DNA of 64,000 bases from Pirellulales bacterium (GCA_963773925.1 CAVZDC010000001.1:88823-152822), one strand, 5' to 3'. Counted from the stretch's first letter, positions 3,667-58,371 are shown. The notes: generated by a model not told the origin, from the letters alone. Numbers and translations are program-made.

Positions 3667-3694
3667 GAGCGAGGGGTGAGGGGCGAGGGCCGAG
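3667..3694 (-). repeat. 7-nt tandem tract abutting the argF start
   Basis: The sense strand reads CTCGGCC CTCGCCC CTCACCC CTCGCTC cacc-ATG. Confidence 0.7.
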
Positions 3695-3733
3695 CAGCCG
3701 AAGTTTTTTGTGGTGCTGTAGTAACCATGAATG

Positions 3734-4942
3734 TCATTTTACCGTGGATTGATGTTTGAGAACGTCCGCCAGAATATCGCAACCTTCGTGCACTTGTTCT
3801 TCACTGATATTCAGCGCCGGCAATAGCCGGATCACTACGCCATGCGTGCAGTTGATCAGCAGGCGACGATCGAGGCACGCTTTCACAATCGGCGCCCCGT
3901 CGGTCGTCAGCTCCACGCCGATCATCATCCCCAGCACGCGCACCTCGCGGATCAAATTGCACTGCTGCTTGAGCGACTCCAGCCGCGTGCGGAACACTTC
4001 GCTCATCTTCTTGGCGTGTTCCAGCAAGTTTTCGTTCTCCACGGCCTCAATGTACGCCACGCCTGCCCGGGCGGCGATCGGGTTGCCGCCAAAGGTCGCC
4101 GCGTGCATCCCCGGCCGCAAACTGGGTGCAATTTCCGGCTTGACCATCATTGCGCCTCCCGCCACGCCGCCGCACAGCGCCTTGGCCAGCGTCATCACAT
4201 CCGGCGTCACGTCAAAATGCTGGTAGGCAAACCACTCGCCGGTTCGCCCGCACCCTGTCTGCACCTCATCGAAGATCAACAGCAATTTGTTTTCGTCGCA
4301 CAGTTGCCGCAGCCCGGGCAGAAAATCGGCCGGCGGAATGTTAATGCCCCCTTCGCCTTGCACCGGCTCGACCATAATCGCGGCTGTCTCCCGATCGATC
4401 AGCCCCTTCACCGCCTGCAAATCGCCAAATTGTGCGTACACGAAGCCGGCCATCAATGGCCCGAGCCCTTCGTGATACTTTGGCTGCGCCGTGGCGGCCG
4501 TCGCGCCCAACGTGCGTCCATGAAATCCGCCGGTGAAAGTGATGATTTTGTAACGCTCTTTCGGCGTGTGCAGCCGAGCCAGCTTGATCGCCGCCTCGTT
4601 CGCCTCGGTCCCCGAATTGCAAAAGAACGCCTGCCCGCCGAAGCTTCGCTCCGAAAGGGCCTGGGCCCACAACCCCTGCCACGGCGTGTGCCAGGTGTTG
4701 GGCACGTGAATCAGCGTGGCGATTTGCTCCTGCACCGCTTCGACCACTTGCGGCGGACAGTGCCCCAGCAAATTGCAGCCCCAGCCGGGAAAGAAATCGA
4801 GATATTCGTTCCCTTCCGCGTCCCACACGTACGAACCTTCGCCGCGCACCAGCGACACCGGGAACCGCGCGTAGTTCGGCACCACGTACTTCTTGAACAG
4901 TTCGATCGTTTCGGCGGAGTTCATAGTTCCGGTAGTAGACAT
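3734..4942 (-). CDS. argD: acetylornithine aminotransferase
   Basis: This is a class-III aminotransferase: [46 protein letters not shown]. Confidence 0.9.
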
Positions 4943-4970
4943 GGTGGAAAGCGCCGGGTTCGGGCTCGTA

Positions 4971-5870
4971 TCATTCGTCGCGCATCATTTCAGTGCCGAC
5001 GCCTTTGTTTGTATAAATCTCCAACAGCAGCGAGTGCCGCAGCCGCCCGTCGATGATGTGAATCTTCCGCACCCCTTTATCCAGCGTCTCCAAGCAGCCT
5101 TCAACCTTCGGGATCATCCCACTTTCAATCGCCCCGTCGCTAATTAACTTCCGCGCCTGGGCGGCCGTCAAAGAATTCAGGAGCGTCTTTGGATCATCCT
5201 TTTTCTTCCGCACCCCATTCACGTCGCTCAAAAAAATCAGCTTTTCCGCCCCCAAAGCCGTCGCCACGGCGGTGGCTGCCGTGTCGGCATTCACGTTCAG
5301 CTTTTCGCCGTCGGGACCCAGGCACATTGAGGGAATCACCGGCACCTGCCCGGCGTAGCACAGGTTTTCAATCGTCGTTCGATCCACGCGGGTGACCGTG
5401 CCGACGTGCCCCAGATCGACATCCTTGTCGGCGTCGTCCTTGAGCATGATTCGCTCGCCGAAGAGCACGTTGGTGGTGCGAAAGTTGAGCGGCATCGCCC
5501 GGCCGCCGAATTCTTCGATCCGTTTGGCGATGTATTCGCAGGTTTCGTAAGCCAGCGTTTGCTCGACGATCGCCAGCGTGGCATCGTCGGTGTACCGTCT
5601 GCCCTGAATGAACCGCGGCTCCAACCCCGCCGCATCCATCGCCCGGCTGATCGCCGCCCCGCCTCCATGCACCACCACCGGCCGCATGCCCACGGTTTCC
5701 ATGAACACAATGTCGATCAGCAAATGCGGCAGCGTCTTCTCGTCTTCCATGACGCTGCCCCCCAGCTTAATCACCGTCACTTTGTCGCGGAACCGCCGGA
5801 TCCAGCCCAACGCTTCAATCAGCACGTCGGCCTTTTCGATGGCGTGTTGATGGTGGGTTTCAACGCTCAC
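4971..5870 (-). CDS. argB: acetylglutamate kinase
   Basis: [29 protein letters not shown]...VVVHGGG is present. The maximal ORF reaches 5948. A GTG at 5870, preceded by GGGAGG, gives a typical roughly 299-aa ArgB. Confidence 0.85.
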
Positions 5871-6043
5871 TCTGTCGGCGCCTCCCGAAGGTGAATTTCC
5901 CCAGCGACTGGCTTCCCTTGGGCTGGGTGCAACCCTAAGGCAGTCCACAAGTTGTAGGCAAACAGGTCATTCTATGAAGGCGCCGCCTGCCGTCAACGCC
6001 CTGCGGTTTGCCAAGATGCCCGCGGAAACGCGGCAAAATCTCG

Positions 6044-6072: not shown

Positions 6073-6075
6073 ATT

Positions 6076-9575: not shown

Positions 9576-9590
9576 GTACGGAGCGCATCG

Positions 9591-12620: not shown

Positions 12621-12753
12621 AAATATTCTCCGCTTCCGGCGTGTCCTCATTCTGGTGCGCTCCGATTATACGCCTTTCCAGCCGCGATCAAACAGCCTGT
12701 CCGCCGTCCCCTGGCCAATCCTGTTCCCCAACCGCTATGCTGATGCGCAGCTC

Positions 12754-12791
12754 ATTCCCCATTCCACATTCCCCATTCCCCATTGATTCCC
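12754..12791 (+). repeat. ATTCCCC heptamer tract abutting the pgi start
   Basis: ATTCCCC ATTCCAC ATTCCCC ATTCCCC ATTGATT ccc-ATG. Confidence 0.8.
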
Positions 12792-14419
12792 ATGGTGCCT
12801 CCCGTCACCCAGCGCCCCGCCTGGAAATCGCTCCAGCAGCACGCCGAGCAAATCCGCGCCACCCACTTGCGCAATCTCTTCGCCGACGATCCTAACCGCG
12901 GCACGCGCCTTACCGCCGAAGCACTGGGCGTGTACTTCGACTACTCGAAAAACCTGATCACCGCCGAGACGCTCGAAGCTGCTCTTGCAACTGGCGGCCG
13001 AAAGCGGCTTGCGCGACCGTATCGACGCCATGTTCCGCGGCGAGAAAATCAACGTCACCGAACGCCGCGCCGTCCTGCACGTGGCCCTGCGGGCCCCCCA
13101 AAGCGAAAAGATCATGGTCGACGGCCAGGACGTCGTGCCCAAAGTGCACGCCGAGCTCGATAAAATGGCCGCCTTCGCCAACCGCGTACGCAGTGGCCAG
13201 TGGCGCGGCCACACCGGCAAACCGATCAAAAACATCATCAACATCGGCATCGGCGGCAGCGATCTGGGACCGGTGATGGCGTACGAAGCCCTGCGATTCT
13301 ACAGCGATCGCAGCCGTACGTTCCGCTTCGTCTCGAACATCGACGGCACCGATTTTCTGGAAGCCACCCGCGATCTGGACGCCGAAGAAACCCTGTTCAT
13401 CATCTCCTCCAAAACATTCACCACGCTGGAGACGATGACCAACGCACACACCGCCCGCAATTGGGCGCTGGCAAAGCTGAAAGACGAAAAATCGGTGGCC
13501 AAGCATTTCGTGGCCGTATCCACCAATGCCAAGGAAGTGGCCAAGTTCGGCATCGATACCGCCAACATGTTCGAATTCTGGGATTGGGTCGGCGGACGCT
13601 ATTCCTACGATTCCGCCATCGGCCTGTCGCTGATGATCGCCATCGGGCCCGACCACTTTCGCGAAATGCTGGCCGGCTTCCACGCCATGGACGAGCACTT
13701 CCGCGCCACGCCGTTCGAGAAGAACCTGCCCGTTCTCTTGGGCCTGATCGGCATTTGGTACAACAATTTCCTCGGCGCAAACCGTCGCAATTCTTCCGTA
13801 CGATCATTACCTGGGCCGCCTGTCAAGTTATCTGCAACAGCTCGACATGGAAAGCGACGGCAAAAGCGTCGATCTGGATGGCAAGCCCGTCGATTACCAA
13901 ACCGGCCCGATCATCTGGGGCACCCCCGGCACCAACGGGCAGCACGCCTACTATCAACTCATCCACCAGGGCACCAAGCTGATTCCCTGCGACTTCATCG
14001 GCTTTCGCCAAACCTTGAATCCGCTGGGCCGCCATCACGATCTGTTGATGGCCAACCTGTTCGCCCAAACCGAAGCGCTCGCCTTCGGCAAAACCCGTGA
14101 GCAGGTGGTGGCCGACGGTGTGCCCGACTATCAGGTGCCGCACCGGGTGTTCCAGGGCAACCATCCGACCAACACGATTATGCTGGATAAGCTGACCCCC
14201 AAGGCGCTGGGCAAGATCGTCGCCCTCTACGAACACAAAGTTTTCACCCAGGGAACCATCTGGCACATCAACTCGTTCGATCAGTGGGGGGTAGAATTAG
14301 GAAAGGTTTTGGCCCAACGCATCATCCCTGAATTGGAAGGCCCCACCGACGTCTCGCTTAAACACGACACCTCCACCAACACGCTAATCACCCGTTACAA
14401 ACAAACTCGCAGCAAATAA
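12792..14419 (+). CDS. pgi: glucose-6-phosphate isomerase (two apparent frameshifts)
   Basis: Track ORFs 12783.., 12985..14100 and 13847..14419 form one Pgi ([73 protein letters not shown]). The breaks are near 12980 and 13785. Confidence 0.9.
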
Positions 14420-14497
14420 CCGCCGAGTCGCACAGACGCCGAGGAGAACTTTAATTTTGCCGCTCTGCGACTCGGCGTCTCGGCGGTTCAAACTGGA

Positions 14498-15169
14498 ATG
14501 ATCGAACTCGCCCCCTCCATCCTCTCCGCCGATTTCTCCCGCCTCGGCCAGCAGGTTAGCGACGCGCTGGCCTGCGGAATTAAGCGCATCCATGTCGACG
14601 TGATGGATGGCCATTTCGTGCCCAATATCTCGATGGGCCCGCACGTGGTGCAGTGCATCAAGCCCATCGTCGCTGCGGCCGGCGCGATCATCGAAACGCA
14701 TCTGATGGTCGAACAACCCGAACGCTACCTGGCCGACTTTGTCAAAGCTGGCTCCGACATTGTGATCGTTCACGTCGAAACCTGCCCGCATTTGCATCGC
14801 ACGCTGCAGCAAATCCGCGAACTGGGTGCGAAAGTTGGTGTCACCCTCAACCCGGCCACGCCGCTGGTGACGTTGGAGGAAGTGCTCGGCGACGTCGATC
14901 ACGTGCTGGTGATGACCGTCAATCCCGGCTTCGGCGGCCAGGAATTCATCCCGGAAAGCATCGAGAAAATCGCGCGGCTGAAAAAAATGCTCGCCGACCG
15001 CAAGCTAAGTCAGGTGCACATCGAAGTCGACGGCGGCATCCACCCCGGCACCATCGCTTCGGTGGCCCAGGCCGGCGCCACGATTGCCGTGGCCGGCAGC
15101 GCCGTCTTCAACAACGCCGCCACCGTGGCCGACAACATCGCCGCCCTGCGCAAAGCCGCCGGCAAGTAA
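14498..15169 (+). CDS. rpe: ribulose-phosphate 3-epimerase
   Basis: APSILSADFSRLG...HVDVMDGHFVPN...MTVNPGFGGQ.F. Confidence 0.95.
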   Translation: MIELAPSILSADFSRLGQQVSDALACGIKRIHVDVMDGHFVPNISMGPHVVQCIKPIVAAAGAIIETHLMVEQPERYLADFVKAGSDIVIVHVETCPHLHRTLQQIRELGAKVGVTLNPATPLVTLEEVLGDVDHVLVMTVNPGFGGQEFIPESIEKIARLKKMLADRKLSQVHIEVDGGIHPGTIASVAQAGATIAVAGSAVFNNAATVADNIAALRKAAGK

Positions 15170-15171
15170 TA

Positions 15172-15206
15172 GCCGCCTGCTGCCTGCCGCCCGCTGCCCG
15201 CTACTG
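15172..15206. repeat. GC-rich 7-nt tract in a convergent spacer
   Basis: GCCGCCT GCTGCCT GCCGCCC GCTGCCC GCTACTG. It shares GCCGCCTGCTGCC with the reverse complement of 48632-48663. Confidence 0.55.
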
Positions 15207-15935
15207 TCCGCCATACGGCGTCAGCAGTTTCAAAATCGCCTTCTTGATTTCCTGGCGTTCCGAATCGATGTCGCCATCCTGCAGATTGAAGTGGTCGTCG
15301 AAATCCGCGTTGAACGCCAATGTTTTGTAGTAATGCGTCGGCAACGGCATCGGCTCCGTTTCGGCCCACAGCAAACCGTATTGGCGAACTAATTCCTTCT
15401 GCTCGGGCGATTTCGGCTTGTAGGACGCCGGCGGCACCGGCGGCTCGTCGGCCGTCAGCAAATTGATCAGCGTGTTTTTCACCCCCGCATCCTGCAGCTT
15501 CTTCTGGAACTCGCGCCGCAATCGATCGTTCGTCGCATTCTTCTCCGCCGCCTCTCGATACTGCTGCGGCCTGATCATGTTCATCATCGACATCTGGAAA
15601 AACACCCGCATCGGTTGAAACTCCGCATCCGTCGATCCCGGTGCCAGTTTCAGCCCAACATACCGGCCAACCGCCTTGTCCTCGCGCCAAATCATGATGC
15701 TCGGTGTGGTGGGTTGCCGAAACTCGCAGGCAATCGTTTCCGGCACATCCGGCGTCAGTTCCGCCCGCCACCCCTCGGGCAACACTTTCTGAATTCCCCC
15801 CAGCAATTGCTTGAGGTTCGACATGTCGCGCGCCAATTCATCGTCGGCCCGCACAGTCGAAATCAAGCACCCGACCAAGGCAATTGCCGAAGCGAAAGTC
15901 TTTTTGCGCGAAATCGATTGCATCTGGCTCCTCAC
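15201..15935 (-). CDS. secreted protein (hypothetical)
   Basis: A 244-aa ORF with a signal-like N-terminus (KKTFASAIALVGCLISTVRA). No family was recognised. Confidence 0.5.
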   Translation of the reverse strand: MRSQMQSISRKKTFASAIALVGCLISTVRADDELARDMSNLKQLLGGIQKVLPEGWRAELTPDVPETIACEFRQPTTPSIMIWREDKAVGRYVGLKLAPGSTDAEFQPMRVFFQMSMMNMIRPQQYREAAEKNATNDRLRREFQKKLQDAGVKNTLINLLTADEPPVPPASYKPKSPEQKELVRQYGLLWAETEPMPLPTHYYKTLAFNADFDDHFNLQDGDIDSERQEIKKAILKLLTPYGGQ

Positions 15936-16016
15936 AAATCACGCCGCCCAGCGTTTACTATTGTAACAATCGTGTCGCCGTATAGCCTCTATCTTTCCCC
16001 CACAACTGCCCAGTAT

Positions 16017-16040
16017 CCTGAACCCTGAACCCTGAACCCC
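16017..16040 (+). repeat. CCTGAAC x3 tract just upstream of the UbiD-family gene start
   Basis: CCTGAAC CCTGAAC CCTGAAC ccc tagttgc-ATG. Confidence 0.8.
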
Positions 16041-16047
16041 TAGTTGC

Positions 16048-21404: not shown

Positions 21405-23118
21405 AGTTCCGACTGCTTCAGTCGCCAGCCTCCGCCGTCTGCTCTGTCTTCTGCTTTCTGCCTTCTGCATTCGCCCTCTCCGTCCTTCCCCGCCTCCGCC
21501 ACCACCTCGGGCTTCGTCAAATGCAAATCGTGCCCGTGGTCGGCGGTCACAATGAGCGCGGTATCGTTCCAGCCGCCGTGCGCTTCCACCCAGTCGGTCA
21601 CTGCGCGCACGGCATCATCGCCATCTAGCACCGTGCCGATCGAATTGTCCAGATTGTTGTCGTGATTGGCCCAGTCCACGTCGCCGGCCTCGATCATCAA
21701 CCAAAAGCCGTTGGGGTTTTTCGATAGCACCGTCAGCGCCGCGGTGGCGATGTTGGCCAGCCGCGGATTCTCGTGCAGATCGGCCGCCGAATACCTCTCC
21801 TCGGTCAGTTTGCGGCCCACCGTCGGGTCAAAATTTCCGTCCGCCGTGCGATACGGCAGATGGCTGTTTTTGCCGGCAGTGCCAAAAATCCCCAACAAGC
21901 GCCATCCGTTGGCGGCGGCCTCGTCGGCGGCCGATTCCAAAGCTTCCTTGCCCGTCTACCCCGGCCGTGCGCTGCACCACTCGATAACGCCCCCCGTTTC
22001 GCACATCCACCGCTTTCAAATCGTCCGCCGCGATGTATTTCAAACCCGGCACAAAGTTCGTCCCTTGTTTAGTGCCCGACCGATCGTATTCGTGCCAGCC
22101 GGTGCCGATCAGCACATCCAGTCCCGGCAGCGGCTCTTCGCGATGCGAAATGCTGCGCAGCCCCAACAGGTCGCGCGCCAGGTCCTGATAGTCGTCACGA
22201 TGCACGTTGTTCGCGTACGCCGTGGCGGGCGTGGCATGGCTAATCGGCACGCTCGTCACCGCCCCCACCGAAAATCCCTTTCGCTGCAATTGCCGCCCAA
22301 TCGTTTCGACCTGCCGCCCGTCGGAATCCACGTTGATCGCATCGTCGTAGGTCTTTACACCACTGCACAGCGACGTGCCGGCCGACGACGAATCGGTGTA
22401 CGCATGCGGGCACTCTCGGTCTTTGGAAATCACATACGACGGATCGCGCTCCGGTCCCCACGGCGTATCGCCGCCGCGCCGCCAACTGTAGCCGCCTTTG
22501 TGTGTGCCCCCCGGGTTGATCACGGTTTGCGCATCCACGTCCACCTCCGTGCCGGTATTGCGCGGACTGGTGACGAAATAGCCGAAATCGGTTGCCGCGC
22601 CGCGATAATCCTGGAAATGCAACCCGCTTCCGCGCCCTTGGCGATACTTCACCTCGCCGCTGCGATAAACGGCCGCCGCCTGCGTGGTTTGCCAATCCAT
22701 CCCGTCGAAAATCACCAGGATGATTCGCTTTTTCCCCTGCGCCGCGGCGGCTTGTTGCAGCCGATAGATGTCGGTTTCGTCGAAATATCCGGCCTGCGGA
22801 TTGAGCGTTTCCGTGGGCAGATATCCGTACAATTGTTCCAGTCGCTCGCGGCTGCGATACGGGCTGTGCTCGCCGCGCACGCTGGCCAGATCGATGCCGA
22901 AGGTGTACACCGGAATCAATCGGTTGGAATGGTTGCCCCATGCCGGTGTACTTCGTCGGCCGCGGTCCCCAGTAGCCCCAATCGGCGTAATCCTGCGAAA
23001 TCGCCTCCGCCTGCAGATTGCGGATTGCATCGGCCGTGGTCGGCGCCGAAACAAGCAGGCGCAAACCGAACAGCCCAACCACAGCCCCGCCGATAAGAAG
23101 CAACCGTGCGCGAAACAT
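21374..23118 (-). CDS. alkaline phosphatase family protein (at least two apparent frameshifts, 3' end uncertain)
   Basis: Pieces 22240..23166 (signal [18 protein letters not shown]), 21828..23135 ([20 protein letters not shown]) and 21374..21940 ([19 protein letters not shown]). The breaks are near 22925 and 21945. The last roughly 30 codons are a read-through of a repeat tract. Confidence 0.75.
21438..21507. repeat. TTCTGCC-family 7-nt tract between cyclophilin and phosphatase genes
   Basis: TCTGCTC TGTCTTC TGCTTTC TGCCTTC TGCATTC GCCCTCT CCGTCCT TCCCCGC CTCCGCC ACCACCT. Positions 21447-21466 are identical to 42292-42311 (20 nt). Confidence 0.75.
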
Positions 23119-25128: not shown

Positions 25129-25162
25129 TTTCTGCCATCTGCTTTCTGCGTTCTGCCTTTCC
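25129..25162 (+). repeat. TTCTGC heptamer tract abutting the mnmE start
   Basis: TTTCTGC CATCTGC TTTCTGC GTTCTGC ctttcc-ATG. Confidence 0.8.
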
Positions 25163-26289
25163 ATGCCCACTACCGCCGCCATCCTTACGCCCGCCGGCCG
25201 CGGCGCAGTTGCAGTGATCGCGGTCGACGGACCGCAAGCCGCGCAGGTGGTCGAGAAATTCCTGCATACGCGCAGCGAGGCAAGCTTCGCCCAACTGCCG
25301 CTGGGCCAAATCATTTACCGCCGCTGGGGTAGTGAGCCCACCGAAGACGTAATCGCTTGTCGCCGCAGCGCCTCTCAGATCGAAATCCATTGTCACGGCG
25401 GCACGGTCGCGGCCCAACGCATTTTGGACGATTTAAACTCCGCCGGCGCAGCCATCCAACACTGGGCCGACTGGATCGGCCAACACGAACCACCGCCATT
25501 CGCGCCGCCGCCCGCGCCGCGTTGGCCCACGCCACGACGCACCGTGCCGCGTCAATCTTGCTCGATCAATATCACGGCGCGCTGGAGGTCGCGCTGCGCC
25601 AAATCGTCACACAACTCGATTCTGATCCGACCTCAGCCGAAGCTGATCTAACGCAATTGCTGGCCCGCGCACCCCTCGGCTTGCATCTGACCAAGCCTTG
25701 GCAGATCGTGATTGCCGGACCGCCCAATGTCGGCAAAAGCAGCCTGCTGAACGCATTTGTGGGTTACCAGCGAGCGATCGTCTTCGACCAGCCCGGAACC
25801 ACCCGCGATGTCGTCACCGCCGCCACTGCCATCGACGGCTGGCCTGTGCAAGTTTCCGACACCGCCGGTCTGCGTTCTTCCGCCGACCCGTTGGAAACCG
25901 CCGGCGCCGACAGTGCCGCCCAGCAAGCCCGGGCCGCCGACTGTTTATTGCTGGTGTTCGACGCGTCGCAACACTGGACCGCCGGCAATCAGCAACTGAT
26001 CGATGCTTGGCCACAAGCAGTCGTCGTCGGAAATAAGTGCGATTATCGCCGCTGATCGCTCACTCATTGCCCGGCCATGCACCTCACCAGCGCGCTAACC
26101 GGAGAAGGAATCGAAGCCCTACTGCAAAAAATTGCCGCACGCCTGGTTTCCCTCGATCTTCGCCCCGGCGATGCGGTCCCATTTTGCCAATCGCAAGTCG
26201 ACAATCTCCATCGCGCCAAAGAAGCCCTAAGCCGCAACGACATTCCCAAACCGCATTGCTGCACTGCTGCTGCTATCACTGCTGGCTAA
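25163..26289 (+). CDS. mnmE: tRNA-modification GTPase MnmE-like (about three apparent frameshifts; atypical C-terminus)
   Basis: TAAILTPAGRGAVAVIAV (N domain) and IVIAGPPNVGKSSLLNAF...GTTRDVV...DTAGLR...VVVGNKCD (G domain). The breaks are near 25490, 26043 and 26072. No C-terminal C-[ILV]-G-K motif is seen. Confidence 0.75.
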
Positions 26290-26443
26290 AAGCTAACCGC
26301 TAACAGCTCATCTGCTCTAGACCCTGCCCGATTGTGCCGTTATTCTCTGCCTCCTGCGCCGTCGTGCGCAGCTTTCGTGCACTCGCGCCGTCAGGCAAAT
26401 CATTGTCGAGCGTTCATCGACGGTGTTCAGGGAGGAACACGCG

Positions 26444-30697: not shown

Positions 30698-30796
30698 TTT
30701 CGTTTAGCCGCGACGCGCAGTCCTCGAAGCGCCAGCGCGTGTCGGGCCCCATAGTTTGGCAGAGCTCTCACACCCCATCAAGCCCCGGCGCTTCGC

Positions 30797-30830
30797 ATTC
30801 CCCATTCCCCACTCCCCTTTCCCCATTACA
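30797..30830 (+). repeat. ATTCCCC heptamer tract abutting the sulfotransferase start
   Basis: ATTCCCC ATTCCCC ACTCCCC TTTCCCC attaca-ATG. Confidence 0.8.
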
Positions 30831-32022: not shown

Positions 32023-32025
32023 ATC

Positions 32026-32060
32026 ATTCTGCATTTTGCAATCTGCACTTTCATCCTCAC
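32026..32060. repeat. 7-nt tract after the hairpin
   Basis: ATTCTGC ATTTTGC AATCTGC ACTTTCA TCCTCAC. Confidence 0.6.
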
Positions 32061-33120: not shown

Positions 33121-33162
33121 CAGGGCACTAGGGGCGAGGGACTAGAGACGAGGGGCGTGACA
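33121..33162 (-). repeat. CCCCTCG-type 7-nt tract spanning the HEAT-gene stop and abutting the activator start
   Basis: The sense strand reads TGTCACG CCCCTCG TCTCTAG TCCCTCG CCCCTAG TGCCCTG tc-ATG. Confidence 0.7.
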
Positions 33163-35368: not shown

Positions 35369-36814
35369 GTTTTCCTCGTCTTCTGCCGTTTGCCTTCTGC
35401 CTTCTGTTCTGCCTGTCCCGGCGCGCCAGGACTGCCTGCCGCCTGCAGCTTCTTCTGCCAGGCTGCCACCTGCCGCGCTACCTCCTTCGGCCCTGTTGAA
35501 CCGTAGCTGACAAACCGCGCCACGGCATTTTCCACGCCCAGCGCACTTTTCAACCGGCCGTCCAAAATCTCGCTCGGCAAATCCGCCAGCCGCACCCCGC
35601 GATCCATCGCCGCTTTCACCAATTTCCCGACCATTTCGTGCGCCGTCCGCTGCGGCGTGCCGCCGCGAATTAATTCCTCCATCAGCGTGGTCGCATCGAG
35701 ATACCCGCGATCCAATTTCTCAGCAATCGCCGCTTTGTTCAGCTCTGCGCCCGTCACCAGTGGCGCCGCAATTTTCAGACACGCCAAAACGGTATCGACC
35801 GAATCAAAAATGCGCTGCTTGTCCTCCTGCAAATCGCGGTTGTACGCCAAGGGCAAGCCCTTCACCAAAACCAACAGCGCCTGCAAATTGCCGATCACCC
35901 GCGCCGTCTTCCCCCGCACCAATTCCAGCACGTCCGGATTGATCTTCTGCGGCATGATCGAACTGCCGGTGCAAAATGCCTGCGGCAACTTCAAAAAACC
36001 AAACTCCGCCGTGCTCCACAAAATCCATTCCTCGGCCCACGTGCTCAAATGCTCCGCCACCAGCGCCAGCGCAAACGCCAGCTCGATCACAAAATCGCGA
36101 TCGCTCGAAGTGTCGAGGCTATTGGCCGTCACCTGCGGCTCGCCGCGCTCATTCACAAACCCCAATCGCCGCGCAACATCGTGCGCGATCGATCGGCAAA
36201 CTCGTCCCCGCCAGCGCTGCCGCTCCCAGCGGCAACACATTCAATCGCCGCCGACAATCGGCCAATCGCTCCCGATCGCGCTCGAACTTCTCGCAGTAAG
36301 CCAACCAATAGTGCGCCGCCAACACCGGCTGCGCGCGCTGCATGTGCGTGTAGCCCGGCAGAATCACCTCCCGATCGCTCTGGCATCGCTCCACAAACGC
36401 CCGCTGCACGCCCGCCAGCGCCGCATCAACTCGATCGATCACCTCCCGGCACCACAACCGCAAATCGGTCGACACCTGATCGTTCCGGCTGCGGGCCGTG
36501 TGCAGCTTGCGCCCCACGTCGCCGATGCGCTCGATCAGCGCCCGCTCAATGTGCAGATGGATGTCCTCGAGCTCTGTTTTGAACTCGAATTCGCCTTGCT
36601 CAATCTCTTGGCGAATGGCCGCCAAACCTTGCTCAATCTGTCGGCATTCCTCGGCCGTGATAAGCCCCGCGGTGACCAACATTTGGGCATGCGCAATCGA
36701 TGCAGTTACATCATGCGCATACAATCGCCGGTCGAAGCTGATGCTTTCGGTGAACTGTTCCACCCGGCGATCCGTCGCTTCGCTGAAAACTCCCGACCAG
36801 GCTTTTTGATTCAC
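35365..36814 (-). CDS. argH: argininosuccinate lyase (one apparent frameshift)
   Basis: Pieces 36149..36835 ([34 protein letters not shown]) and 35365..36240 ([16 protein letters not shown]). The break is near 36190. A GTG at 36814 follows GGAG. The stop overlaps the next ATG (ATGA). The last roughly 15 codons read through a repeat tract. Confidence 0.9.
35380..35414. repeat. TTCTGC-family heptamer tract inside the argH 3' end / upstream of the HEAT gene
   Basis: CTTCTGC CGTTTGC CTTCTGC CTTCTGT TCTGCCT (plus strand). Confidence 0.75.
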
Positions 36815-38957: not shown

Positions 38958-38964
38958 ACGCCGA

Positions 38965-39086
38965 GAACGATGAGCAATGAGCAAAGAGCAATGAACTATA
39001 AGGCATCCGCTGCCTGTTCATTGTTCAATGTTCATAGTTCATAGCTCGTAGCCACTCACTTACTCACCCGTTCTCCCCTACAATCA
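38965..39086 (+). repeat. 122-nt spacer made of 7-8 nt units with partly complementary arms
   Basis: GAGCAAT GAGCAAA GAGCAAT GAACTAT ... CTGTTCA TTGTTCA ATGTTCA TAGTTCA TAGCTCG TAGCCAC TCACTTA CTCACCC GTTCTCC CCTACAA tca-ATG. CAATGAAC and GTTCATTG can pair. Confidence 0.75.
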
Positions 39087-41331
39087 ATGGTGCCGCTTTC
39101 ACTGAGCGATACCATGTCCGCGCCCACATTCAATCCGCTGCCAATCATCGAACCACCGCGCCCCGATCCCTACGGCCGCGACCTGGGCCCCTACATCGAC
39201 AACGTTGGTTCACTCGCCTCCCGCCGCAACCCAGACACCAGACACCAGACACCAGACACACCTTCTCCCCTCCCCATGTCCCGCGCCGAAATGAACGCCC
39301 GCGGCTGGGACGCCCCCGATATCGTCTTCGTCACCGGCGACGCCTACGTCGATCACCCCAGTTTCGCCATGGCGCTGCTGGGCCGCCTCCTGGAAGACGA
39401 AGGCTTCCGCGTCGCCATCCTCAGCCAGCCCGATTGGCATTCCTGCGACGCGTGGCGCACCTTCGGCAAGCCGCGGCTGTTCTTCGCCGTCAGCGCCGGC
39501 AACATGGATTCGATGATCAACCACTACACCGCCAACCGCAAAGTGCGCAACGACGATGCCTACAGTCCCGGTGGCGCCATCGGCCGCCGCCCCGACCGCT
39601 GCACGCTGGCCTACTGCCAGCGCGCCCGCGAGGCGTACAAGGGCGTCCCCATCATCGCCGGCGGCGTCGAAGCCAGCCTCCGCCGCATCGCCCACTACGA
39701 CTATTGGTCCGACAAAGTCCGCCGCAGCATCCTCATCGACGCCAAGTGCGACCTGTTGGTCTACGGCATGGGCGAGCGCCCGATCATCGAAATCGCCCAT
39801 CGCCTCGCCGCCGGCGCAACAGTCCGCGACCTCCGCAACCTCCGCGGCGTCGCCTACCGCCTCGGCGCCAAAGAAACCGCCGCGTTGGCGTTCGCGCCCA
39901 CGCCGACCGTCTCACCAATCGCTCCCCCCACCATCGAACTCCCTGCTTACGAAAAAATCTCCGCCGACGATGCCGCCTCCAAGCACACCTTCTGCGCCAT
40001 GACCAAAATCTCCCACCAGGAAACCAACCCCTACAACGCCAAGCGCCTGCTGCAACGCCACGGCACCGAAGCCATCGTCGTCAACCCCGGCGCACTGCCG
40101 CTCACGCAAGCCGAAATGGATCGCGTTTACGGCCTGCCGTTCACGCGCCGGCCGCACCCCAGCTACGGCCGAGAAAAAATCCCCGCCTACGAAGTCGTCA
40201 AGCACTCCGTGCAAATCATGCGCGGCTGCTTCGGCGGCTGCACCTTCTGCAGCATCACCGCTCATGAAGGCCGCATCATCCAAAGCCGCAGCCAGGAATC
40301 GGTGCTGGCAGAAATCGAACGCATGCGCCAAACCCAGCCCGATTTCACCGGCGTCGTCAGCGATATCGGCGGCCCCACCGCCAACATGTACCAAATGCGT
40401 TGCTCCCGCCCCGAGGTCGAAGCCGTCTGCCGCCGCCTCAGTTGCGTCCATCCCACCATCTGCAAACTGCTGGGCACCGACCACGGCCCACTGATCGACT
40501 TGATGAAAAAGTCTCGCGAGCTCCCCGGCGTGCGCAAAGTGCTAGTCGCCTCCGGCATCCGCATGGACCTGGCCCGCCGCGACCCGGTCTACATGCGCGA
40601 GCTCGCCCAGCACCACGTCGGCGGCCATCTGAAAGTCGCCCCCGAACACACCGACCCCGGCGTGCTCGAAAAGATGAAAAAACCCAGCAACGACGATTTC
40701 GAAAAGTTCTCCGACTCCTTCCGCCGCCAATCGAAAGCCGCCGGCAAAAAGCAGTACCTCATCCCGTACTACATCGCCAGCCATCCCGGCAGCGACCTCG
40801 AACGCCATGATCGACCTGGCCCTGTTCCTCAAGCGCAACCACTACCGCCCCGACCAGGTCCAAGATTTCATCCCCAGCCCCTTCGACATCGCCGCCTGCA
40901 TGTACCACACGGGCTACGACCCGTTCACCATGAAGCCCGTCTACATCGCCAAACACCTCCGCGACCGCCGCCTGCAGCGCGCCCTGCTGCAATTCTTCAA
41001 ACCCGAAAACTATTTCGAAGTGCGCAAGGCTCTGGAACAAGCCGGCCGCCAAGATTTGATCGGCAGCGGCTGCGACTGCCTGATCCCCGACCGCCCGCCA
41101 AAAGAAGCTCTTTCGCGCCGCCGCCGCAAAGCCAACGAATCCCTAAACGAAACCTCCGGCGACCACATCCGCAGCGCCGACGGCCCCTTAGCCCCGGGCT
41201 CCGCCCGGGGGTCGCACACCAAACGGCATCCCACCACCAAAAAACCCCGCCAGCCCCCCGTTACACCGGGGGATTCCGCCGCGCGCGTCCCCGGCTACCG
41301 CCCCGGCCGCAAATCCGACCGCCGCCGCTAA
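39087..41331 (+). CDS. ygiQ: YgiQ-family radical SAM protein (one apparent frameshift; start uncertain)
   Basis: [53 protein letters not shown] and, after a break near 40800, [25 protein letters not shown] (track ORF 40807..41331). An alternative start is at 39276 (MSRAEM), downstream of the CCAGACA repeat. Confidence 0.85.
39231..39258 (+). repeat. perfect 4x CCAGACA tandem repeat
   Basis: CCAGACA x4. It is either 5' leader or an in-frame ..[12 protein letters not shown].. segment of ygiQ, depending on the start. Confidence 0.85.
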
Positions 41332-41910: not shown

Positions 41911-41955
41911 TCAGTGTTCTAAGTTCACCAAGCCGCCAACCGCTGCCTCGTGACT

Positions 41956-41978
41956 CCTGAACCCTGAACCCCGAACCC
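41956..41978 (+). repeat. CCTGAAC-family tract
   Basis: CCTGAAC CCTGAAC CCCGAAC cc. The first 15 nt are identical to 16017-16031. Confidence 0.75.
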
Positions 41979-42162
41979 TTCCTCCGCCACCCGGCCCGAC
42001 CAAGCGCAACCCTCCCGCGTTCACCCCATGCATGGGTCCGCCGCGAGAGCCAGCGCCCGGGGTCGTGAGGTCGATCGGCAGCAAACAAGCTTCAATCGGC
42101 TGGTTAGGCATTCCAGCCCACCGATCGATCGCCAAAAACCTGATGGTGCGCTCCCTCCTCCC

Positions 42163-42185
42163 CTCTCTCCCCTTGCGGGAGAGGG
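42163..42185. repeat. GC-rich REP-like hairpin
   Basis: CTCTCTCCC-cttgc-GGGAGAGGG followed by CGGTGGCGAGGGGG. This is the kind of element that yields spurious ..SPLAGEGGGEG.. ORFs. Confidence 0.4.
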
Positions 42186-42292
42186 CGGTGGCGAGGGGGC
42201 AACCGCACCTGCACGACCCCTCGGGGCCGACCGCACACCAAATCGCGCGCACCGCGTGAACTGTCTTCCTTCGCGCGCCCACCCCGTCTCCT

Positions 42293-42334
42293 CTTCTGCT
42301 TTCTGCCTTCTCTGCGTCTCCGCGTCTCGGCGGT
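42293..42334. repeat. TTCTGC-family tract downstream of the CMD-family gene stop
   Basis: CTTCTGC TTTCTGC CTTCTCT GCGTCTC CGCGTCT CGGCGGT. GCGTCTCGGCGGTT recurs at 14484-14497. Confidence 0.75.
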
Positions 42335-42337
42335 TAG

Positions 42338-42867: not shown

Positions 42868-42917
42868 GTGCTGCCAGCCGCTAGCCGCGTGCCGCCTGCT
42901 CTTTTACACTTGGACAC
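42868..42917 (+). repeat. 7-nt tract abutting the yjbQ start
   Basis: GTGCTGC CAGCCGC TAGCCGC GTGCCGC CTGCTCT TTTACAC TTGGACA c-ATG. Confidence 0.65.
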
Positions 42918-43340: not shown

Positions 43341-43438
43341 GTCGCCTGGTGGTCTGCTGGTCTAGCCGTCTGGATTCTGGTGCTATGATTCTTAGGCACC
43401 AGATACATCGACACCAGACACGTCCTTCACAAATACCC
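43341..43438 (+). repeat. 98-nt spacer, exactly 14 heptads, with inverted CTGGTG / CACCAG arms
   Basis: ..GGTGGTC TGCTGGT CTAGCCG TCTGGAT TCTGGTG CTATGAT TCTTAGG CACCAGA TACATCG ACACCAG ACACGTC.. There is an 8-bp stem, 43376-43383 with 43396-43403. Confidence 0.75.
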
Positions 43439-46224: not shown

Positions 46225-46307
46225 TTCTCCAGTGTACCTCGCCGGAGGCGGAAATCGCGCCTGCGGAATTTCCGAAAAGTCAAATTAGTTTATCACGAGC
46301 ATTGATT

Positions 46308-46336
46308 TTGTCAACAATGTTTATATAACATATTGA
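46308..46336 (+). promoter_or_regulatory. possible promoter in an AT-rich patch
   Basis: TTGTCA, a 17-nt spacer, then TATTGA. It overlaps the near-palindrome CAATGTTTATATAACATATTG. Confidence 0.3.
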
Positions 46337-46352
46337 GAAAGTGAATAATCCT

Positions 46353-46721
46353 ATGCCTGAGCAACAACCCGTCGGCAATGAATGCCCCTACTGCGGCACG
46401 GTGATGACCGTTACGCAGATGTCGTGCGAGCATTGCCGCGTAGCGGTTTCGGCGGCGTTTCCCATGTCGCGGCTGGCCGGGCTGCCGGTGGAACATCAGC
46501 GGTTTATTGAAATGTTCGTGCTGGCCAGCGGCAATTTGAAAGAGATCGCCGAACAAGTGGGCGTTTCGTATCCGACGATTCGTTCGCGGCTGGACAAGGT
46601 GATTGAAGTGCTGCGGGTTGAGATTTCCAAAACGCAGCGCATTCGCGGCAACGTGTTGGACGCCGTCGTGCCCAGTAAAACCACGGCCGAGGAGGCCGCG
46701 CGGCTTATCAAGCGCATTTAA
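46353..46721 (+). CDS. DUF2089-type zinc-ribbon/HTH protein
   Basis: CPYCGTVMTVTQMSCEHCRVAV...LPVEHQRFIEMFVLASGNLKEIAEQVGVSYPTIRSRLDKVIEVL. An alternative GTG start is at 46341. Confidence 0.7.
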   Translation: MPEQQPVGNECPYCGTVMTVTQMSCEHCRVAVSAAFPMSRLAGLPVEHQRFIEMFVLASGNLKEIAEQVGVSYPTIRSRLDKVIEVLRVEISKTQRIRGNVLDAVVPSKTTAEEAARLIKRI

Positions 46722-48631: not shown

Positions 48632-48663
48632 TTAGCAGGTGGCTGGCAGCAGGCGGCCGGCAG
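48632..48663. repeat. GC-rich 7-nt tract filling a convergent spacer
   Basis: GTGGCTG GCAGCAG GCGGCCG GCAG. Confidence 0.5.
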
Positions 48664-50466: not shown

Positions 50467-50565
50467 GTTGAAAGAGTGAGCAGGTGAGTAAGTGAGTAGG
50501 TAAGAATTCTGGCGACGGGTTATTTCATACTTACTCACCTACTCACTTACTCACTCTTGCGAAGC
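50467..50565 (-). repeat. 8-nt-unit inverted repeat filling the fabH-pepF spacer
   Basis: Plus-strand arms are AGAGTGAG CAGGTGAG TAAGTGAG TAGGTAAG and CTTACTCA CCTACTCA CTTACTCA. A 17-bp perfect stem pairs 50485-50501 with 50537-50553. Confidence 0.8.
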
Positions 50566-51586
50566 CTACCAGCGCCACAGCGCGGTGCCCCAGCACAGTC
50601 CGGCGCCGAAGCCGCACATGACGATGTTGCCGCCGCGCTTGACCAAACCTTTTTGGATGGCTTCGTCGAGCGCCAACGGAATGCTGCCGGCGGAGGTGTT
50701 GCCGTATTGCTGGAGGTTGACGAACATTTTGCGGCGGTCGACGCCCAACTCGGCGGCGGCGGCGGCGAGAATGCGGATGTTGGCCTGGTGCAGGACGACC
50801 AGATCGACGTCATTGGTGGTAATTTTGGCGAATTCCAGCACGTCGCGCACGGATTGATCGATCAGGCGGATGGCCCATTTGAAGACCGCGCGGCCGTCCA
50901 TTCGCATGAAGTGCTCACCGGCTTTCACGGTTTCGACCGAGGCTGGCTTGCGCGAGCCGCCGGCTTTCATGCACAAGATATCTTCCGCCGAGCCGTCGGC
51001 GCCAAGGGTGTAGGCGATGAGGCCTTGGTTGTCGCTGCCGGCGGCCAGCAAAACGCGCACTGCGCCGTCGCCGAACAGCGGGTAGGTTTTATTGTCGGTG
51101 GGTTCGACGATGCGCGAGTTGGCGTCGGCGCCGACGATCAACGCCAGCTTGCTGCCGCCGGTGGCGACGAACTGTGCGCCGGTGACGAGGGCATACATGA
51201 AGCCGGCACAGGCCGCCGACACGTCGAAGGCTCCACAGTGCAGGCCGAGCTTGGTTTGCACCTGGGTGGCGGTGGAAGGGATCGGCAGATCGGGGCTGAA
51301 CGTGCCCAACACCAACAGATCAACATCGCCCGGCGAGACACCGGCGCAATCCATGGCGCGGCGCGCGGCGGCCACAGCCAGGTCGCTGGTGCATTGATCC
51401 GGGGCAACTTGCCGCCGCTCGCGGATGCCGCTGCGCTCAAAAATCCATTGCGGATCGCAGCCGTACTTGGCGAGGTCTTCGTTGCGCACGACTGTATCCG
51501 GCACATAGCTGCCGGTGGCGATGACACTGCACCCCGGTCAGCCGCCGCAGCGGCGATCGCAGATTTTGAGGAGGGGCGTAGGCCAT
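50566..51586 (-). CDS. fabH: beta-ketoacyl-ACP synthase III (one apparent frameshift near the 5' end)
   Basis: GSYVPDTVVRNEDL, AACAGFMYAL, HQANIRI, GNTSAGSIPLAL, GFGAGLCWG. The N-terminus MAYAPPQNLRSPLRRLTGVQC is in another frame (track ORF 51437..51628). The break is near 51525. Confidence 0.85.
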
Positions 51587-51642
51587 TGGAAGGGCGCAGG
51601 ATTCAGGATGCAGGGCGCAGAAATCCAATTTGCGGGCGCAGG
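51574..51642 (-). repeat. four CCTGCGCCC boxes phased at 18/21/21 nt across the fabH start
   Basis: Plus-strand GGGCGTAGG (51574), GGGCGCAGG (51592), GGGCGCAGA (51613) and GGGCGCAGG (51634). Confidence 0.7.
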
Positions 51643-51648
51643 AAAGAG

Positions 51649-51669
51649 CCCGTAAGTTACGGGTTTTTT
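51649..51669. terminator. short hairpin with flanking A6/T6 (possible bidirectional terminator after lepA)
   Basis: CCCGTaagttACGGG followed by TTTTTT on the plus strand. On the minus strand (lepA sense) it is followed only by CTCTTTCC. Confidence 0.3.
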
Positions 51670-51778
51670 GCGGAGTTCACAAGAGCGAGTGCGAGGTGGG
51701 GTTGGCACCGACAAACCCGGTTTGTCCGTGGGGGTGAAGGAGATTTTCACTGCCAAGCGCGCTTGTCAGTGCCACCCG

Positions 51779-56933: not shown

Positions 56934-56937
56934 GCAA

Positions 56938-56958
56938 GGGTTCAGAGTTCGGGGTTCG
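56938..56958 (+). repeat. reverse-complement copy of the CCTGAAC family
   Basis: GGGTTCA GAGTTCG GGGTTCG, directly after the stop at 56933. Confidence 0.65.
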
Positions 56959-56969
56959 GAATTGCAAAG

Positions 56970-56995
56970 CCGGCGATTGCATCGCCGGTTTTTTT
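56970..56995 (+). terminator. rho-independent terminator shared by convergent genes
   Basis: CCGGCGAT-tgc-ATCGCCGG followed by TTTTTTT. The repaired glycerate-kinase stop (56994-56996) lies in the T-run. Confidence 0.75.
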
Positions 56996-58371
56996 ATGCG
57001 CTGTCGGTGACCACCACTCGCACGTCGCAGACATTGGTATTGGTGGGGCCGGTTTTGATCAGTGCGTCTAGCGGTTCGAAAAAATCGGTAAGCGTCGTTG
57101 CGGCGGAGGACACCTGCGGCATCTAATTTCAACTGCTGTGCGCTGATCGATCACTTCGGCATCGACAAATGCGCCTGCGGCGTCGGTCGGGCCATCTTCG
57201 CCGTCGGTGCCTGCGGAAAGAATTGCCACTCCGCGCGGATCGATTTCAGCCAGACGAATCAGGGCTGCTAGAACGGTTTGTTGATTTCGGCCGCCCAGGC
57301 CGCGTTGGTTCTCCGGCGCCAGTTTCACGGTGCCTTCGCCGCCGCTGATGAAACACTTGGCGCCCGGCGTGGAGCGCAGATGTGCCGCCATGTCGGCCAG
57401 GTGCCGGCCGATTGGCTCGACCGGTCCTTCGAGCTTCGAAGCGCAGGCGGTGGTGGTGGAATAACCCAGTCGCTCGGCTTCGATTGCGGTGGATGCGACT
57501 GCGGTGGCGTTGTTGCCGAGCACATAGTGAGTCAAATGGGGACTGCGAAATGTGGAATGGGGAATGTTTGGCTGGGCGGTTTTTGCACGCAGGGCTTCGA
57601 AGACTGTGGCCGGAATTGTTTGATGCTGTGGATCGAAATGTTCCAGGATTTCGAGCGCTTGCTGCGGCGTGGAGGCGGCGGGAACGGTGGGGCCTGACGC
57701 GATCAGATCGAGCGGATCGCCCAGCACGTCGGAAATGATCAAAGTTAACAAGCGGCCGGCGGAACAGGCGCGGGCCAACCCGCCGCCGGTGATGCGATTG
57801 AGCTGCTTGCGCACGGTGTTGAGCTGGCGAATGTCGGCGCCGGCGGCACTAAGGAATTGCGTGACCGCGACTAGGTCGGCGAGCGTGACGCCTTCGATCG
57901 GCGCAGGCAAAAGCACCGAGCCGCCACCGGACACCAACGCGATGCACAAATCGTCGGGACCGAGCGAGGAAACGATTTGCAACATCTGCTGGGCGCCAGC
58001 GATGCCTGCGGCCGTAGGCTCGTTTGCTTTGGGGGGCCGGGCGGCATGCAGATGAATGCGGTGGAGCTTTCGCGCGCAATCGGCCGGCACGTTCACCCAG
58101 CCGGTGAGTTGTTTTTTCGCCATCAGTCTTGGACCGAGAATCTCCTCCAAAGCTGCGGCCATGCCCGCCCCGGCCTTGCCCGCACCGACTGCGGCAATCC
58201 GCCGAACGCCGGCCAAATCGACCACTTCCGGTCGATTCTTTGCCAAGGAGGAGCTTGCCGGACTTCGAAGTGGAGATGGTTCTGCATCAATCGCTCGGAT
58301 CGGGCAGCTTCCAATCCGGCTTGCCAGATGCGGACTGCGTCGGCGCGAAGTTCCGCGGAAGAGCGTGTCAT
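56994..58371 (-). CDS. glycerate kinase of the DUF4147/MOFRL type (three apparent frameshifts)
   Basis: GAGKAGAGMA, LVSGGGSVLL, GGEGTVKL, LSAGTDGEDGPTDAAGAFVD, and a tail ..NDAYRFFEPLDALIKTGPTNTNVCDVRVVVV. Pieces 58123..58371, 57068..58246 and 56767..57132. The breaks are near 58250, near 57135 and at the A6 run 57079-57084. Confidence 0.8.
57535..57568 (-). repeat. ATTCCCC-family tract inside the glycerate kinase coding sequence
   Basis: The sense strand reads ATTCCCC ATTCCAC ATTTCGC AGTCCCC ATTT, translated as ..PNIPHSTFRSPHL.. An 18-nt stretch (57549-57566) is identical, as reverse complement, to 12753-12770. Confidence 0.7.

Follow-up and report, generated by a model that had tools for sequence, protein, structure and literature searches.

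Reports of tandem heptanucleotide repeats in bacteria go back to 1990, and the short tandemly repeated repetitive (STRR) sequences of cyanobacteria, said to have been described by Mazel and colleagues in that year, reportedly comprise a few such families dispersed in the intergenic regions of particular lineages. Here we analyze one 64-kb stretch (64,000 nucleotides) of the genome of a Pirellulales bacterium (Planctomycetota; GCA_963773925.1, CAVZDC010000001.1:88823-152822), hereafter the window, whose intergenic spacers carry arrays of short tandem units, and we show that these arrays are dispersed heptanucleotide, less often octanucleotide, simple-sequence repeats (SSRs) of an already described class. 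The original prediction for this DNA had held that no described element class fits; it does not stand on this point, because the arrays match published intergenic heptanucleotide SSRs, down to the same strand rule (PMC4060949; PMC4692102). Heptanucleotide repeats are the dominant long SSRs in many large bacterial genomes, according to later summaries of the survey by Mrazek et al. (2007) (PMC4679880; PMC4692102), and the pattern 7n3, a heptamer repeated at least three times, has its highest phylum median in the Planctomycetes, +2.00 versus 0.75 in Cyanobacteria (Huang & Mrazek, 2014; PMC4060949, Table 2). The SSRs of these two surveys resemble the present arrays in their intergenic enrichment, in their occurrence in large, GC-rich genomes of free-living bacteria and in their patchiness among relatives; the surveys, however, give counts only, without unit words, positions, hairpin pairs or turnover for the Planctomycetes (Mrazek et al., 2007; Huang & Mrazek, 2014).

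In Xanthomonas and Nostoc, the GGGAATC and GGGGA(C/T)T repeats described by Rehm et al. (2015; PMC4692102) share with the arrays of the window the period of 7, the number of about four units and the excess in non-coding DNA. They also follow the strand rule seen here, the G-rich strand being antisense within 50 bp upstream of open reading frames (ORFs) and sense after stops, and they likewise show inverted arrangements, housekeeping neighbors, and variation in length and sequence at the same locus between relatives. They differ in that one G-run, quadruplex-capable unit dominates there, whereas about nine unit families, most of them not quadruplex-forming, occur here: at least four runs of at least three G are found in only about 4 of the 22 spacer arrays, those of the CATTCCC and CCCTCGC families. 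Exact GGGAATC or GGGGAYT dimers are absent from the window, and CATTCCC is one base off the Nostoc units. The TAACTGA repeats of Beggiatoaceae, cyanobacteria and Bacteroidetes (MacGregor, 2015; PMC4679880) are similar in that they come in 2-6 copies, are mostly intergenic and lie directly upstream of starts; a translational role has been suggested for them, and their word is common to distant taxa with no known mechanism of spread. In contrast to the many GC-rich, G-poor words found here, however, they consist of a single AT-rich word that contains stop codons. TAACTGA and the STRR1-3 units gave zero two-unit matches in the window, and the cyanobacterial STRR sequences, which belong to another phylum, have no exact unit match in it; a likeness at one mismatch is at about chance level and was dropped as evidence. 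The window thus lies outside the specific sub-families (GGGNATC, TAACTGA and STRR), yet it shows every feature of the general class that we tested.

Other repeat classes were also compared. The arrays are not of the CRISPR type, since their units are contiguous and 7-8 nt long, as opposed to 23-47-nt repeats with unique spacers, nor are they MITEs with terminal inverted repeats, as no shared termini or duplications were found at the sites compared with a close relative, L085, and with L082, a Pirellulales locus with a YjbQ homologue. As for repetitive extragenic palindromic (REP) sequences and bacterial interspersed mosaic elements (BIMEs), inverted array pairs do give stable intergenic stem-loops by prediction, but their stems are made of tandem 7/8-nt units, lone arrays are not palindromic, and the hairpins have no sequence in common among loci in the 64 kb, although the REP head motif and a REP-associated tyrosine transposase were not searched for; the exclusion of REP/BIME by the original prediction is probably right. 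Phase-variation contingency SSRs, which are long, near-perfect and tied to surface or host-interaction genes with on/off length variants, were considered and rejected: the arrays have 3-5 units, are mostly 65-90% matched and lie beside argF, pgi, rpe, mnmE and pepF.

Because many genes of the window are split by frameshifts, we built a frameshift-tolerant coding map by hand, using a dicodon model and a Pfam check; it holds 59 genes (88% coding) and 48 spacers that total 7,043 nt. In line with the description of the spacers as runs of 7-nt, sometimes 8-nt, units, 22 of the 48 carry a period-7/8 array at a relaxed lag-7/8 threshold, where shuffles lead one to expect 1.55 (maximum 5); with at least 11 of 14 matches at lag 7, 14 spacers remain (shuffles, 0.24-0.26). 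Tandem Repeats Finder returns 25 period-7 rows of 2.1-7.1 copies over the whole window versus 4-5 each for periods 6 and 8. A fixed detector, identical for all periods (a 21-nt segment that recurs at lag p, up to four mismatches being allowed), finds 13 period-7 tracts versus a mean of 0.03 in first-order Markov simulations (13-15 versus 0.03-0.27 overall) and at most two tracts at any other period except the multiple 14. In the spacers, the autocorrelation has z values of 5.4, 5.0 and 5.3 at lags 7, 14 and 21 and of 2.8 at lag 8, while coding DNA displays period 3 only; the comparison of intergenic DNA with coding DNA and shuffles that had been called for therefore shows an excess confined to spacers. 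Twenty-two arrays fall in 7.0 kb of spacer and 10 in 56.5 kb of coding DNA, a density about 18-fold higher in spacers. A typical array is 21-40 nt long, with 3-5 units that match at 65-100%. Of the tracts first listed as intergenic, the one at 57535-57566 is inside a DUF4147/MOFRL ORF, and 35380-35414 and part of 33121-33156 are ORF tails; the tracts at 16796 and 34256 are also coding.

An independent sequence also contains the arrays. Contig L087 (2,809 bp), from a Joint Genome Institute metagenome, is 99.82% identical to positions 13567-16373 and carries, base for base, the octamer array before rpe, the array of the convergent spacer that follows, and CCTGAAC x3 before the ubiD-family gene. 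Three arrays unchanged in an independent contig, the check on a second assembly that had been proposed, mean that faulty assembly is not the source of the arrays. Otherwise the two sequences differ in no more than three substitutions and one 2-nt indel, and the two additional bases of L087, at 13779, restore the pgi frame at one of its breaks, which shows that at least some of the frameshifts are indel errors of the window assembly. About 15 genes are split in this way, among them pgi (twice), the ubiD-family gene, mnmE and ygiQ (positions include 12792-14419, 16048-17910, 25163-26289 and about 40805). Placement by YgiQ puts the window in the Pirellulales (Planctomycetota), with 85% protein identity to the best species-level relative. 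Exact-protein look-ups of four window proteins gave no match, in two cases because of frameshifts or start choice; a search of the whole window against Rfam returned nothing at gathering threshold, with one meaningless sub-threshold miRNA match in the surroundings of ygiQ, and no tRNA gene was found in the window.

The arrays are placed and oriented with respect to genes. In 11 genes (argF, pgi, rpe, the ubiD-family gene, mnmE, and those for a sulfotransferase, a sigma-54 activator, YgiQ, YjbQ, a FAD monooxygenase and PepF) an array ends 2-18 nt before the start codon, and a twelfth start-proximal array lies 9 nt before a HEAT-repeat gene; msrA (18905-19381), earlier taken as array-led, has upstream of it an array of only 2.3 copies. 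On the sense strand, C exceeds G in 10 of the 12, one being neutral and one G-rich (sign test about 0.01), which agrees with the earlier count of about 10 of 12 C/T-rich tracts. The sole G-rich case is the argH tail array before the HEAT-repeat gene, where the argH TGA overlaps the next ATG, and two further, non-orthologous start arrays in L085 obey the C>G rule. After stops the orientation is the opposite, with G exceeding C in 8 unambiguous cases, 1-2 exceptions and three ambiguous convergent spacers. The direction of transcription, through this start/stop rule, accounts for nearly all array orientations; replication strand, judged from GC skew, fits 11 arrays, fails in 5 and was discarded as the main rule.

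Shine-Dalgarno (SD)-like motifs precede about 13 of the 58 called starts in the window and none of the 11 array-led starts checked, so that the original prediction of tracts flush against an ATG without an SD sequence is borne out for the motif, although the distance is 2-18 rather than 0-10 nt and SD motifs are rare window-wide. Planctomycetes are known for low SD use and for weaker folding of the start region in non-SD genes (PMC5397173); as low SD use is a trait of the phylum, the absence of an SD motif is not special to array-led genes. A GGAGG upstream of the L085 pgi resembles an SD sequence and is unusable, the reading frame of that start being uncertain. The HEAT-repeat gene after argH has an SD-like GAGG at the usual spacing, and five array-led genes (16048, 30839, 39276, 43439 and 50466) begin with ATGTCC (Met-Ser) after C-rich sequence.

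Folding was computed for positions -40 to +20 around each start codon, in the 11 array-led genes and at the 48 other starts. The mean is -4.5 kcal/mol for array genes and -13.3 kcal/mol for the others (p 6e-5), with equal or higher GC content in the array genes; when the upstream 40 nt are reverse-complemented, the array genes fold at -13.2 kcal/mol (p 0.002) and the other genes are unaffected. Array-bearing start regions are thus predicted to be almost free of structure, and only in the native orientation. Four co-directional spacers hold complementary array pairs in the layout stop, arm, loop, arm, start, with predicted z scores from -1.5 to -8.7. In the spacer bounded by the stop of pgi (14419) and the ATG of rpe (14498), the inverted octamer arrays CCGAGNCG and CTCGGCGN (14420..14489, + strand) would form a hairpin of -33.3 kcal/mol (z -3.0). 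Right after the stop of a TPM-domain gene (38957), GAGCAAT x3.6 and TGTTCAT x4 (38964..39053, +) make up a 103-nt hairpin upstream of ygiQ, predicted at -41.2 kcal/mol (z -6.2) as compared with -34.1 on the antisense strand, the sense strand being 7 kcal/mol stronger because of G-U pairs. From the fabH stop (50566) to the pepF ATG (50466), octamer arrays AGTGAGTA and ACTTACTC (50475..50557, -) give a 99-nt hairpin at a predicted -44 to -48 kcal/mol (z about -8.5 to -8.7), with no sense-strand preference. The fourth, from the yjbQ stop (43340) to the FAD-monooxygenase ATG (43439), is weaker (z -1.5) and pairs CTGGTGN with CACCAGA arrays around a conserved loop (43344..43422, +). The G-rich arm comes first in the sense direction in three of the four pairs, the pgi-rpe arms being GC-balanced, and also in the sister genome, L001, and in two further loci, L048 and L050. 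The intergenic stem-loop probably acts, if it folds as modeled, as a terminator, stabilizer or insulator.

Comparison with relatives places the arrays among the fastest-changing DNA of the region. Period-7 arrays number 23 per 100 kb in the window and 17 in the close relatives L001, L085 and L086, versus 1.7 in other Planctomycetota (822 kb) and 0.8 in other phyla (513 kb), so that the trait is a clade-level expansion and not a phylum-wide property. Arrays are sporadic in Phycisphaerae and other planctomycete metagenome-assembled genomes (MAGs), a part of which have contig names that point to short-read assemblers; the YjbQ-homologue loci L082-L084 (Pirellulales) have no arrays and serve as negative controls only. 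Over 19 kb the window and L001 are collinear and about 84% identical; coding DNA stands at 84.8%, the tracts at 54.4% and the rest of the spacer DNA at 73.1%: the arrays are the most labile, fastest-evolving spacer sequence. Variation is seen against L001 and L085 and none against L087 (99.8% identical). At orthologous sites of L001 the CATTCCC and CGAGGGN arrays are retained with substitutions and the array at 32025 is absent, while at three sites the word has been replaced and the architecture retained: CCAGACA x4 versus CACTCCG x5 before ygiQ, a heptamer versus an octamer hairpin after the TPM gene (38964..39053), and CTGGTGN/CACCAGA versus GTTTCAA/TTGAAAC arms, around the same loop, after yjbQ. 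In L085 (80-90% identity) most window arrays are missing at orthologous sites, and arrays that the window lacks are present. The 78-nt pgi-rpe spacer, whose array is identical in L087, corresponds to overlapping genes in L085, and the 98-nt yjbQ spacer to 4 nt in L082.

The vocabulary recurs where the positions do not. Two-unit words of CATTCCC, CCTGAAC, TTCTGCC and ACTCACTT, four of the roughly nine unit families, each occur at 2-4 separate loci (5-9 matches versus 0.05-0.8 expected). Even the order of unit variants is shared, over 24 of 26 nt between 14462, in the right arm of 14420..14489, and 42306-42335, and over 20 of 20 nt between 21447 and 42291-42312, as stated in the original prediction (the same words tens of kb apart, with up to 20 nt of identity); the flanks differ at these loci, which means that the copying involves no larger element. 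In relatives these words recur at non-orthologous sites: TTCTGCC twice in L085, ACTCACTT in L001, and CCTGAAC in L086 and in one Phycisphaerales MAG.

As an even call, we read the arrays as slippage-born repeats that are filtered by RNA-folding constraints. Their origin and change would be due to slippage during replication, to template switching from one hairpin arm to the other and to copying from other arrays of the genome, processes that could together explain the strict period, the 3-5 copies, the fast turnover and the shared vocabulary. They would persist only where harmless, in spacers, ORF tails and tolerant protein loops; in-frame arrays are indeed found in a loop of YgiQ (L001, L048 and L050) and in ORF tails. 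Near starts they would survive only in the G-poor, C/T-rich orientation, which leaves the initiation region unpaired; an SD-poor phylum is thought to need such a region, and an array turned the other way round would pair across the start codon. Selection against frame breaks and against folding over starts could in this way produce the orientation rule. A G-rich array after a stop and its complement before the next start would pair into the long intergenic stem-loop. Of the roles suggested at the outset, the data fit two, that of slippage-prone filler and that of unstructured pyrimidine leaders (54.4% tract identity; -4.5 versus -13.3 kcal/mol). The third, a conserved array of sequence-specific binding sites, is disfavored for individual sites, given that orthologous positions have exchanged one unit word for another.

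Several observations weigh against the proposal of slippage and folding constraints. Random local slippage does not explain the recurrence of words at non-orthologous sites and across genomes. Most genes of the window have ordinary structured, G-containing leaders, so an unstructured leader is not a general requirement, and the low folding energy follows from G depletion alone, with no need for periodicity. The G-arm-first polarity is also found inside ygiQ, with no start codon after it. In two cases a -10-like box separates the array from the ATG, so that, if the genes are leaderless, these arrays may not be transcribed at all. Finally, the evidence comes from a single 64-kb window, a home-made gene map and an assembly with about 15 frameshifts.

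One explanation that we consider doubtful is that the arrays are binding sites on single-stranded RNA or DNA, one oligonucleotide/oligosaccharide-binding (OB)-fold protein (cold-shock, S1 or similar) per 7 nt promoting or regulating SD-independent translation. The strict 7-nt period, the placement flush against starts and a vocabulary common to several genomes at non-orthologous sites would suit it, as would the binding of CspB to heptamer repeats at one protein per unit, at least as a review reports it (PMC4679880). A binding protein is harder to reconcile with the swap of words at orthologous sites (CCAGACA versus CACTCCG, for example), with tracts that are the least conserved part of the spacer, with about nine unit families in 64 kb, and with close relatives that have the same genes without any array. 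It is similarly unlikely, in our estimate, that the arrays, and in particular the inverted pairs, represent a REP/MITE-like class of short mobile or copy-paste elements that are non-autonomous and spread by a dedicated route or by recombination: the shared order of unit variants (14462/42306 and 21447/42291), the fact that arrays look like insertions of 78-120 nt when set against other genomes, ygiQ itself included, and a vocabulary held in common at positions that are not would all be expected of such elements, but the hairpins share neither termini nor loops nor target-site duplications, inverted ends are missing from lone arrays, and no transposase-like partner was identified, though no systematic search was made. 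Somewhat less probable again is that the arrays of this clade, far from being passive filler, are an actively spreading copy-paste family of modular RNA elements, in which the G-rich arm follows a stop and the C-rich arm precedes the next start, served by a dedicated mechanism or factor with a 7-nt register. Were it true, elements would be installed, traded as whole blocks from locus to locus and placed in frame even within proteins, and SD-type leaders and gene overlaps would be replaced by a hairpin and an unstructured leader.

Action through non-B DNA or RNA structure, a G-quadruplex or i-motif as proposed for GGGNATC repeats, is quite improbable. The CATTCCC and CCCTCGC families do give at least four runs of three or four G on the antisense strand, copy number clusters near four and the strand rule is that of the Xanthomonas and Nostoc repeats (PMC4692102), but runs of at least three G or C are confined to about 4 of the 22 spacer arrays, and TTCTGCC, CCTGAAC, CCAGACA, ACTCACTT and GAGCAAT cannot form quadruplexes. 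We give equally little weight to a punctuation of transcription in which C-rich RNA would load Rho, or G-rich R-loops after the stop would pause polymerase; the G-arm, by coming first, would hide the C-arm from Rho. Orientation does track transcription and not GC skew (11 arrays fit a replication-strand rule, 5 fail), and the G-arm-then-C-arm polarity recurs in all independent hairpins, including those inside ORFs; a C-rich site before the first gene of a divergent spacer would, however, end a wanted transcript, and where termination is required the window has a canonical intrinsic terminator (56965-57000). Moreover, typical Rho utilization (rut) sites are longer than these arrays of 21-40 nt. 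That the arrays are assembly or sequencing artefacts, or phase-variation contingency loci, is barely credible: some 15 frameshifts suggest an error-prone assembly, and heptamer promoter repeats reportedly drive phase variation in Haemophilus, but L087 reproduces three arrays base for base, L001 has arrays at orthologous sites, and the arrays are short, degenerate and next to housekeeping genes (argF, pgi, rpe, mnmE and pepF).

To the published picture of heptanucleotide repeats the present analysis adds the array density of a clade, the existence of many unit families instead of one and the layout of G-arm after the stop and C-arm before the start, together with complementary pairs capable of forming hairpins in four spacers, the fast evolution of the arrays, the replacement of words at conserved positions, the return of the vocabulary at non-orthologous sites and orientation-dependent folding. 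With about 20 arrays per 100 kb, several sequenced relatives at 75-99.8% identity and many unit families, the clade is a good system for the origin, spread and function of these repeats, since it allows the effects of unit word, hairpin pairing, orientation and position to be told apart. The proposal of slippage under folding constraints predicts that, in an SD-poor phylum, the orientation of arrays beside start codons is constrained by mRNA folding. For the annotation of planctomycete genomes there is a practical consequence: the arrays are stop-free, so ORFs run on through them and gene callers can be misled into false N- or C-terminal extensions. The ORF open from the ATG at 39087 into ygiQ, for instance, would encode 772 residues, whereas the conserved start is at 39276 and the frame before that point is interrupted by an indel with respect to L001; likewise, at 35365-35500, the argH ORF runs about 43 codons beyond its C-terminal domain through a TTCTGCC array, its TGA overlapping the next ATG (ATGA).

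The remaining start-proximal arrays are as follows. On the - strand, a CCCTCGC-type heptamer array of about four units (3666..3695; sense C-G = +14) ends 3 nt before the argF ATG (3662), and a CCCTCGN array (33121..33156), of the same unit family in L001 with substitutions, overlaps the tail and stop (33128) of the HEAT-repeat gene, its end being 2 nt from the sigma-54 activator ATG (33118) downstream. The TTCTGCC-family array reading GCAGAAG on the - strand (35380..35414) is within the C-terminal extension of argH, whose TGA overlaps the HEAT gene ATG (35368), and has in-frame indels in L001. On the + strand, CATTCCC x4.6 (12750..12787; C-G = +15) ends 4 nt before the pgi ATG (12792), CCTGAAC x3.3 in perfect copies (16010..16043), identical in L087 and absent in L085, ends 4 nt before the ubiD-family ATG (16048), and TTCTGCN x4.6 (25131..25160) ends 2 nt before the mnmE ATG (25163). 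A second CATTCCC x4.6 array (30791..30827), represented in L001 by a degenerate 3-unit version, is upstream of the sulfotransferase ATG (30839), CCAGACA x4.1 in perfect copies (39227..39262; CACTCCG x5 in L001) ends 13 nt before the ygiQ ATG (39276), and an NNGCCGC array (42873..42899) ends 18 nt before the yjbQ ATG (42918). The -10-like hexamers TACAAT (30827-30832), between array and ATG at the sulfotransferase gene, and TACACT (42905-42910), at yjbQ, are 6-7 nt before the respective ATGs; their position suggests leaderless transcripts, in which case the array would be part of the promoter rather than of the mRNA. A scan for sigma-70 and terminator consensus sequences gave fewer promoter matches than in shuffles, and promoters could not be placed relative to the arrays.

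The other arrays of the window are these. GCTAACA x3.4 (26284..26308, +) overlaps the mnmE stop; an ACTCACTT octamer array (39054..39075, +) is a single arm; CCTGAAC x3.4 (41947..41980, +) is inside a stretch of about 1 kb without a clear gene; and a composite of CTTCTGC x2.7 and TCTCCGCG x3 (42293..42335, strand unassigned) is right after the stop (42338) of a - strand CMD-family gene. GGGTTCR x3.1 (56937..56960, +), the reverse complement of the CCTGAAC family, lies between a stop (56933) and a textbook intrinsic terminator (56965-57000; stem CCGGCGAT/ATCGCCGG followed by T7), which shows that the organism uses ordinary terminators too. The convergent spacer after rpe holds a CTGCCNG/GCCCGCT heptamer array (15171..15204), identical in L087; the junction between cyclophilin and alkaline-phosphatase/sulfatase-like genes holds TTCTGCN x4 (21443..21473), absent in L085; and CATTCTG x3.3 (32025..32047), which L001 lacks, is 9 nt from the sigma-54 activator stop. 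Of the convergent-spacer examples first named, that at 15172 is the one just described, and those at 28640 and 48632 are present but weak, the latter being a period-14 array of GCAGGCGGCCGGCA x2.1 (48632..48663). No strand is assigned to these convergent arrays or to CAGGATN x about 3 (51597..51620), in the spacer 51505-51778. The CCCCATT-family array at 57535..57566 (-) is in frame within the DUF4147/MOFRL ORF (57068-58246).

In other genomes, a hypervariable loop of YgiQ, after RLAxG and GAKE[TS], carries in-frame heptamer arrays in L001 (10564-10592), L048 (10536-10656) and L050 (10623-10722), the last two being inverted pairs of at least 120 nt. Longer arrays, of 11-22 units, occur in other planctomycete MAGs (L017, 17258-17414; L022, 13988-14069), with a change of unit in mid-array, from GGTTTCA to GACTTCA and from GCGACAA to GCGTCAA. 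Upstream of ygiQ in the window, about 110 nt of non-coding DNA (39060-39170) are essentially 100% identical to L001, as against 85% in coding DNA. This block contains a -10-like TACAAT (39079-39084) and a hairpin AUGGUGCCGC...GCGAUACCAU, has no Rfam match and may be a promoter or a leader RNA element; a metagenome scan with an ultra-conserved 22-mer from upstream of ygiQ gave a single unrelated chance match, in L081. The stretch 41332-42337, about 1 kb without a convincing gene, is different DNA in L001 and holds, beside its CCTGAAC array, a 76-codon ORF of lower GC content (41436-41666). Lastly, a search for DnaA boxes at a switch in GC skew was at chance level, with no cluster; the switch itself, where the + strand skew turns from -0.1 to -0.29 into +0.1 to +0.2 at 43500-46500 across a junction collinear in L001, may mark an origin or terminus of replication, or the breakpoint of an old inversion.

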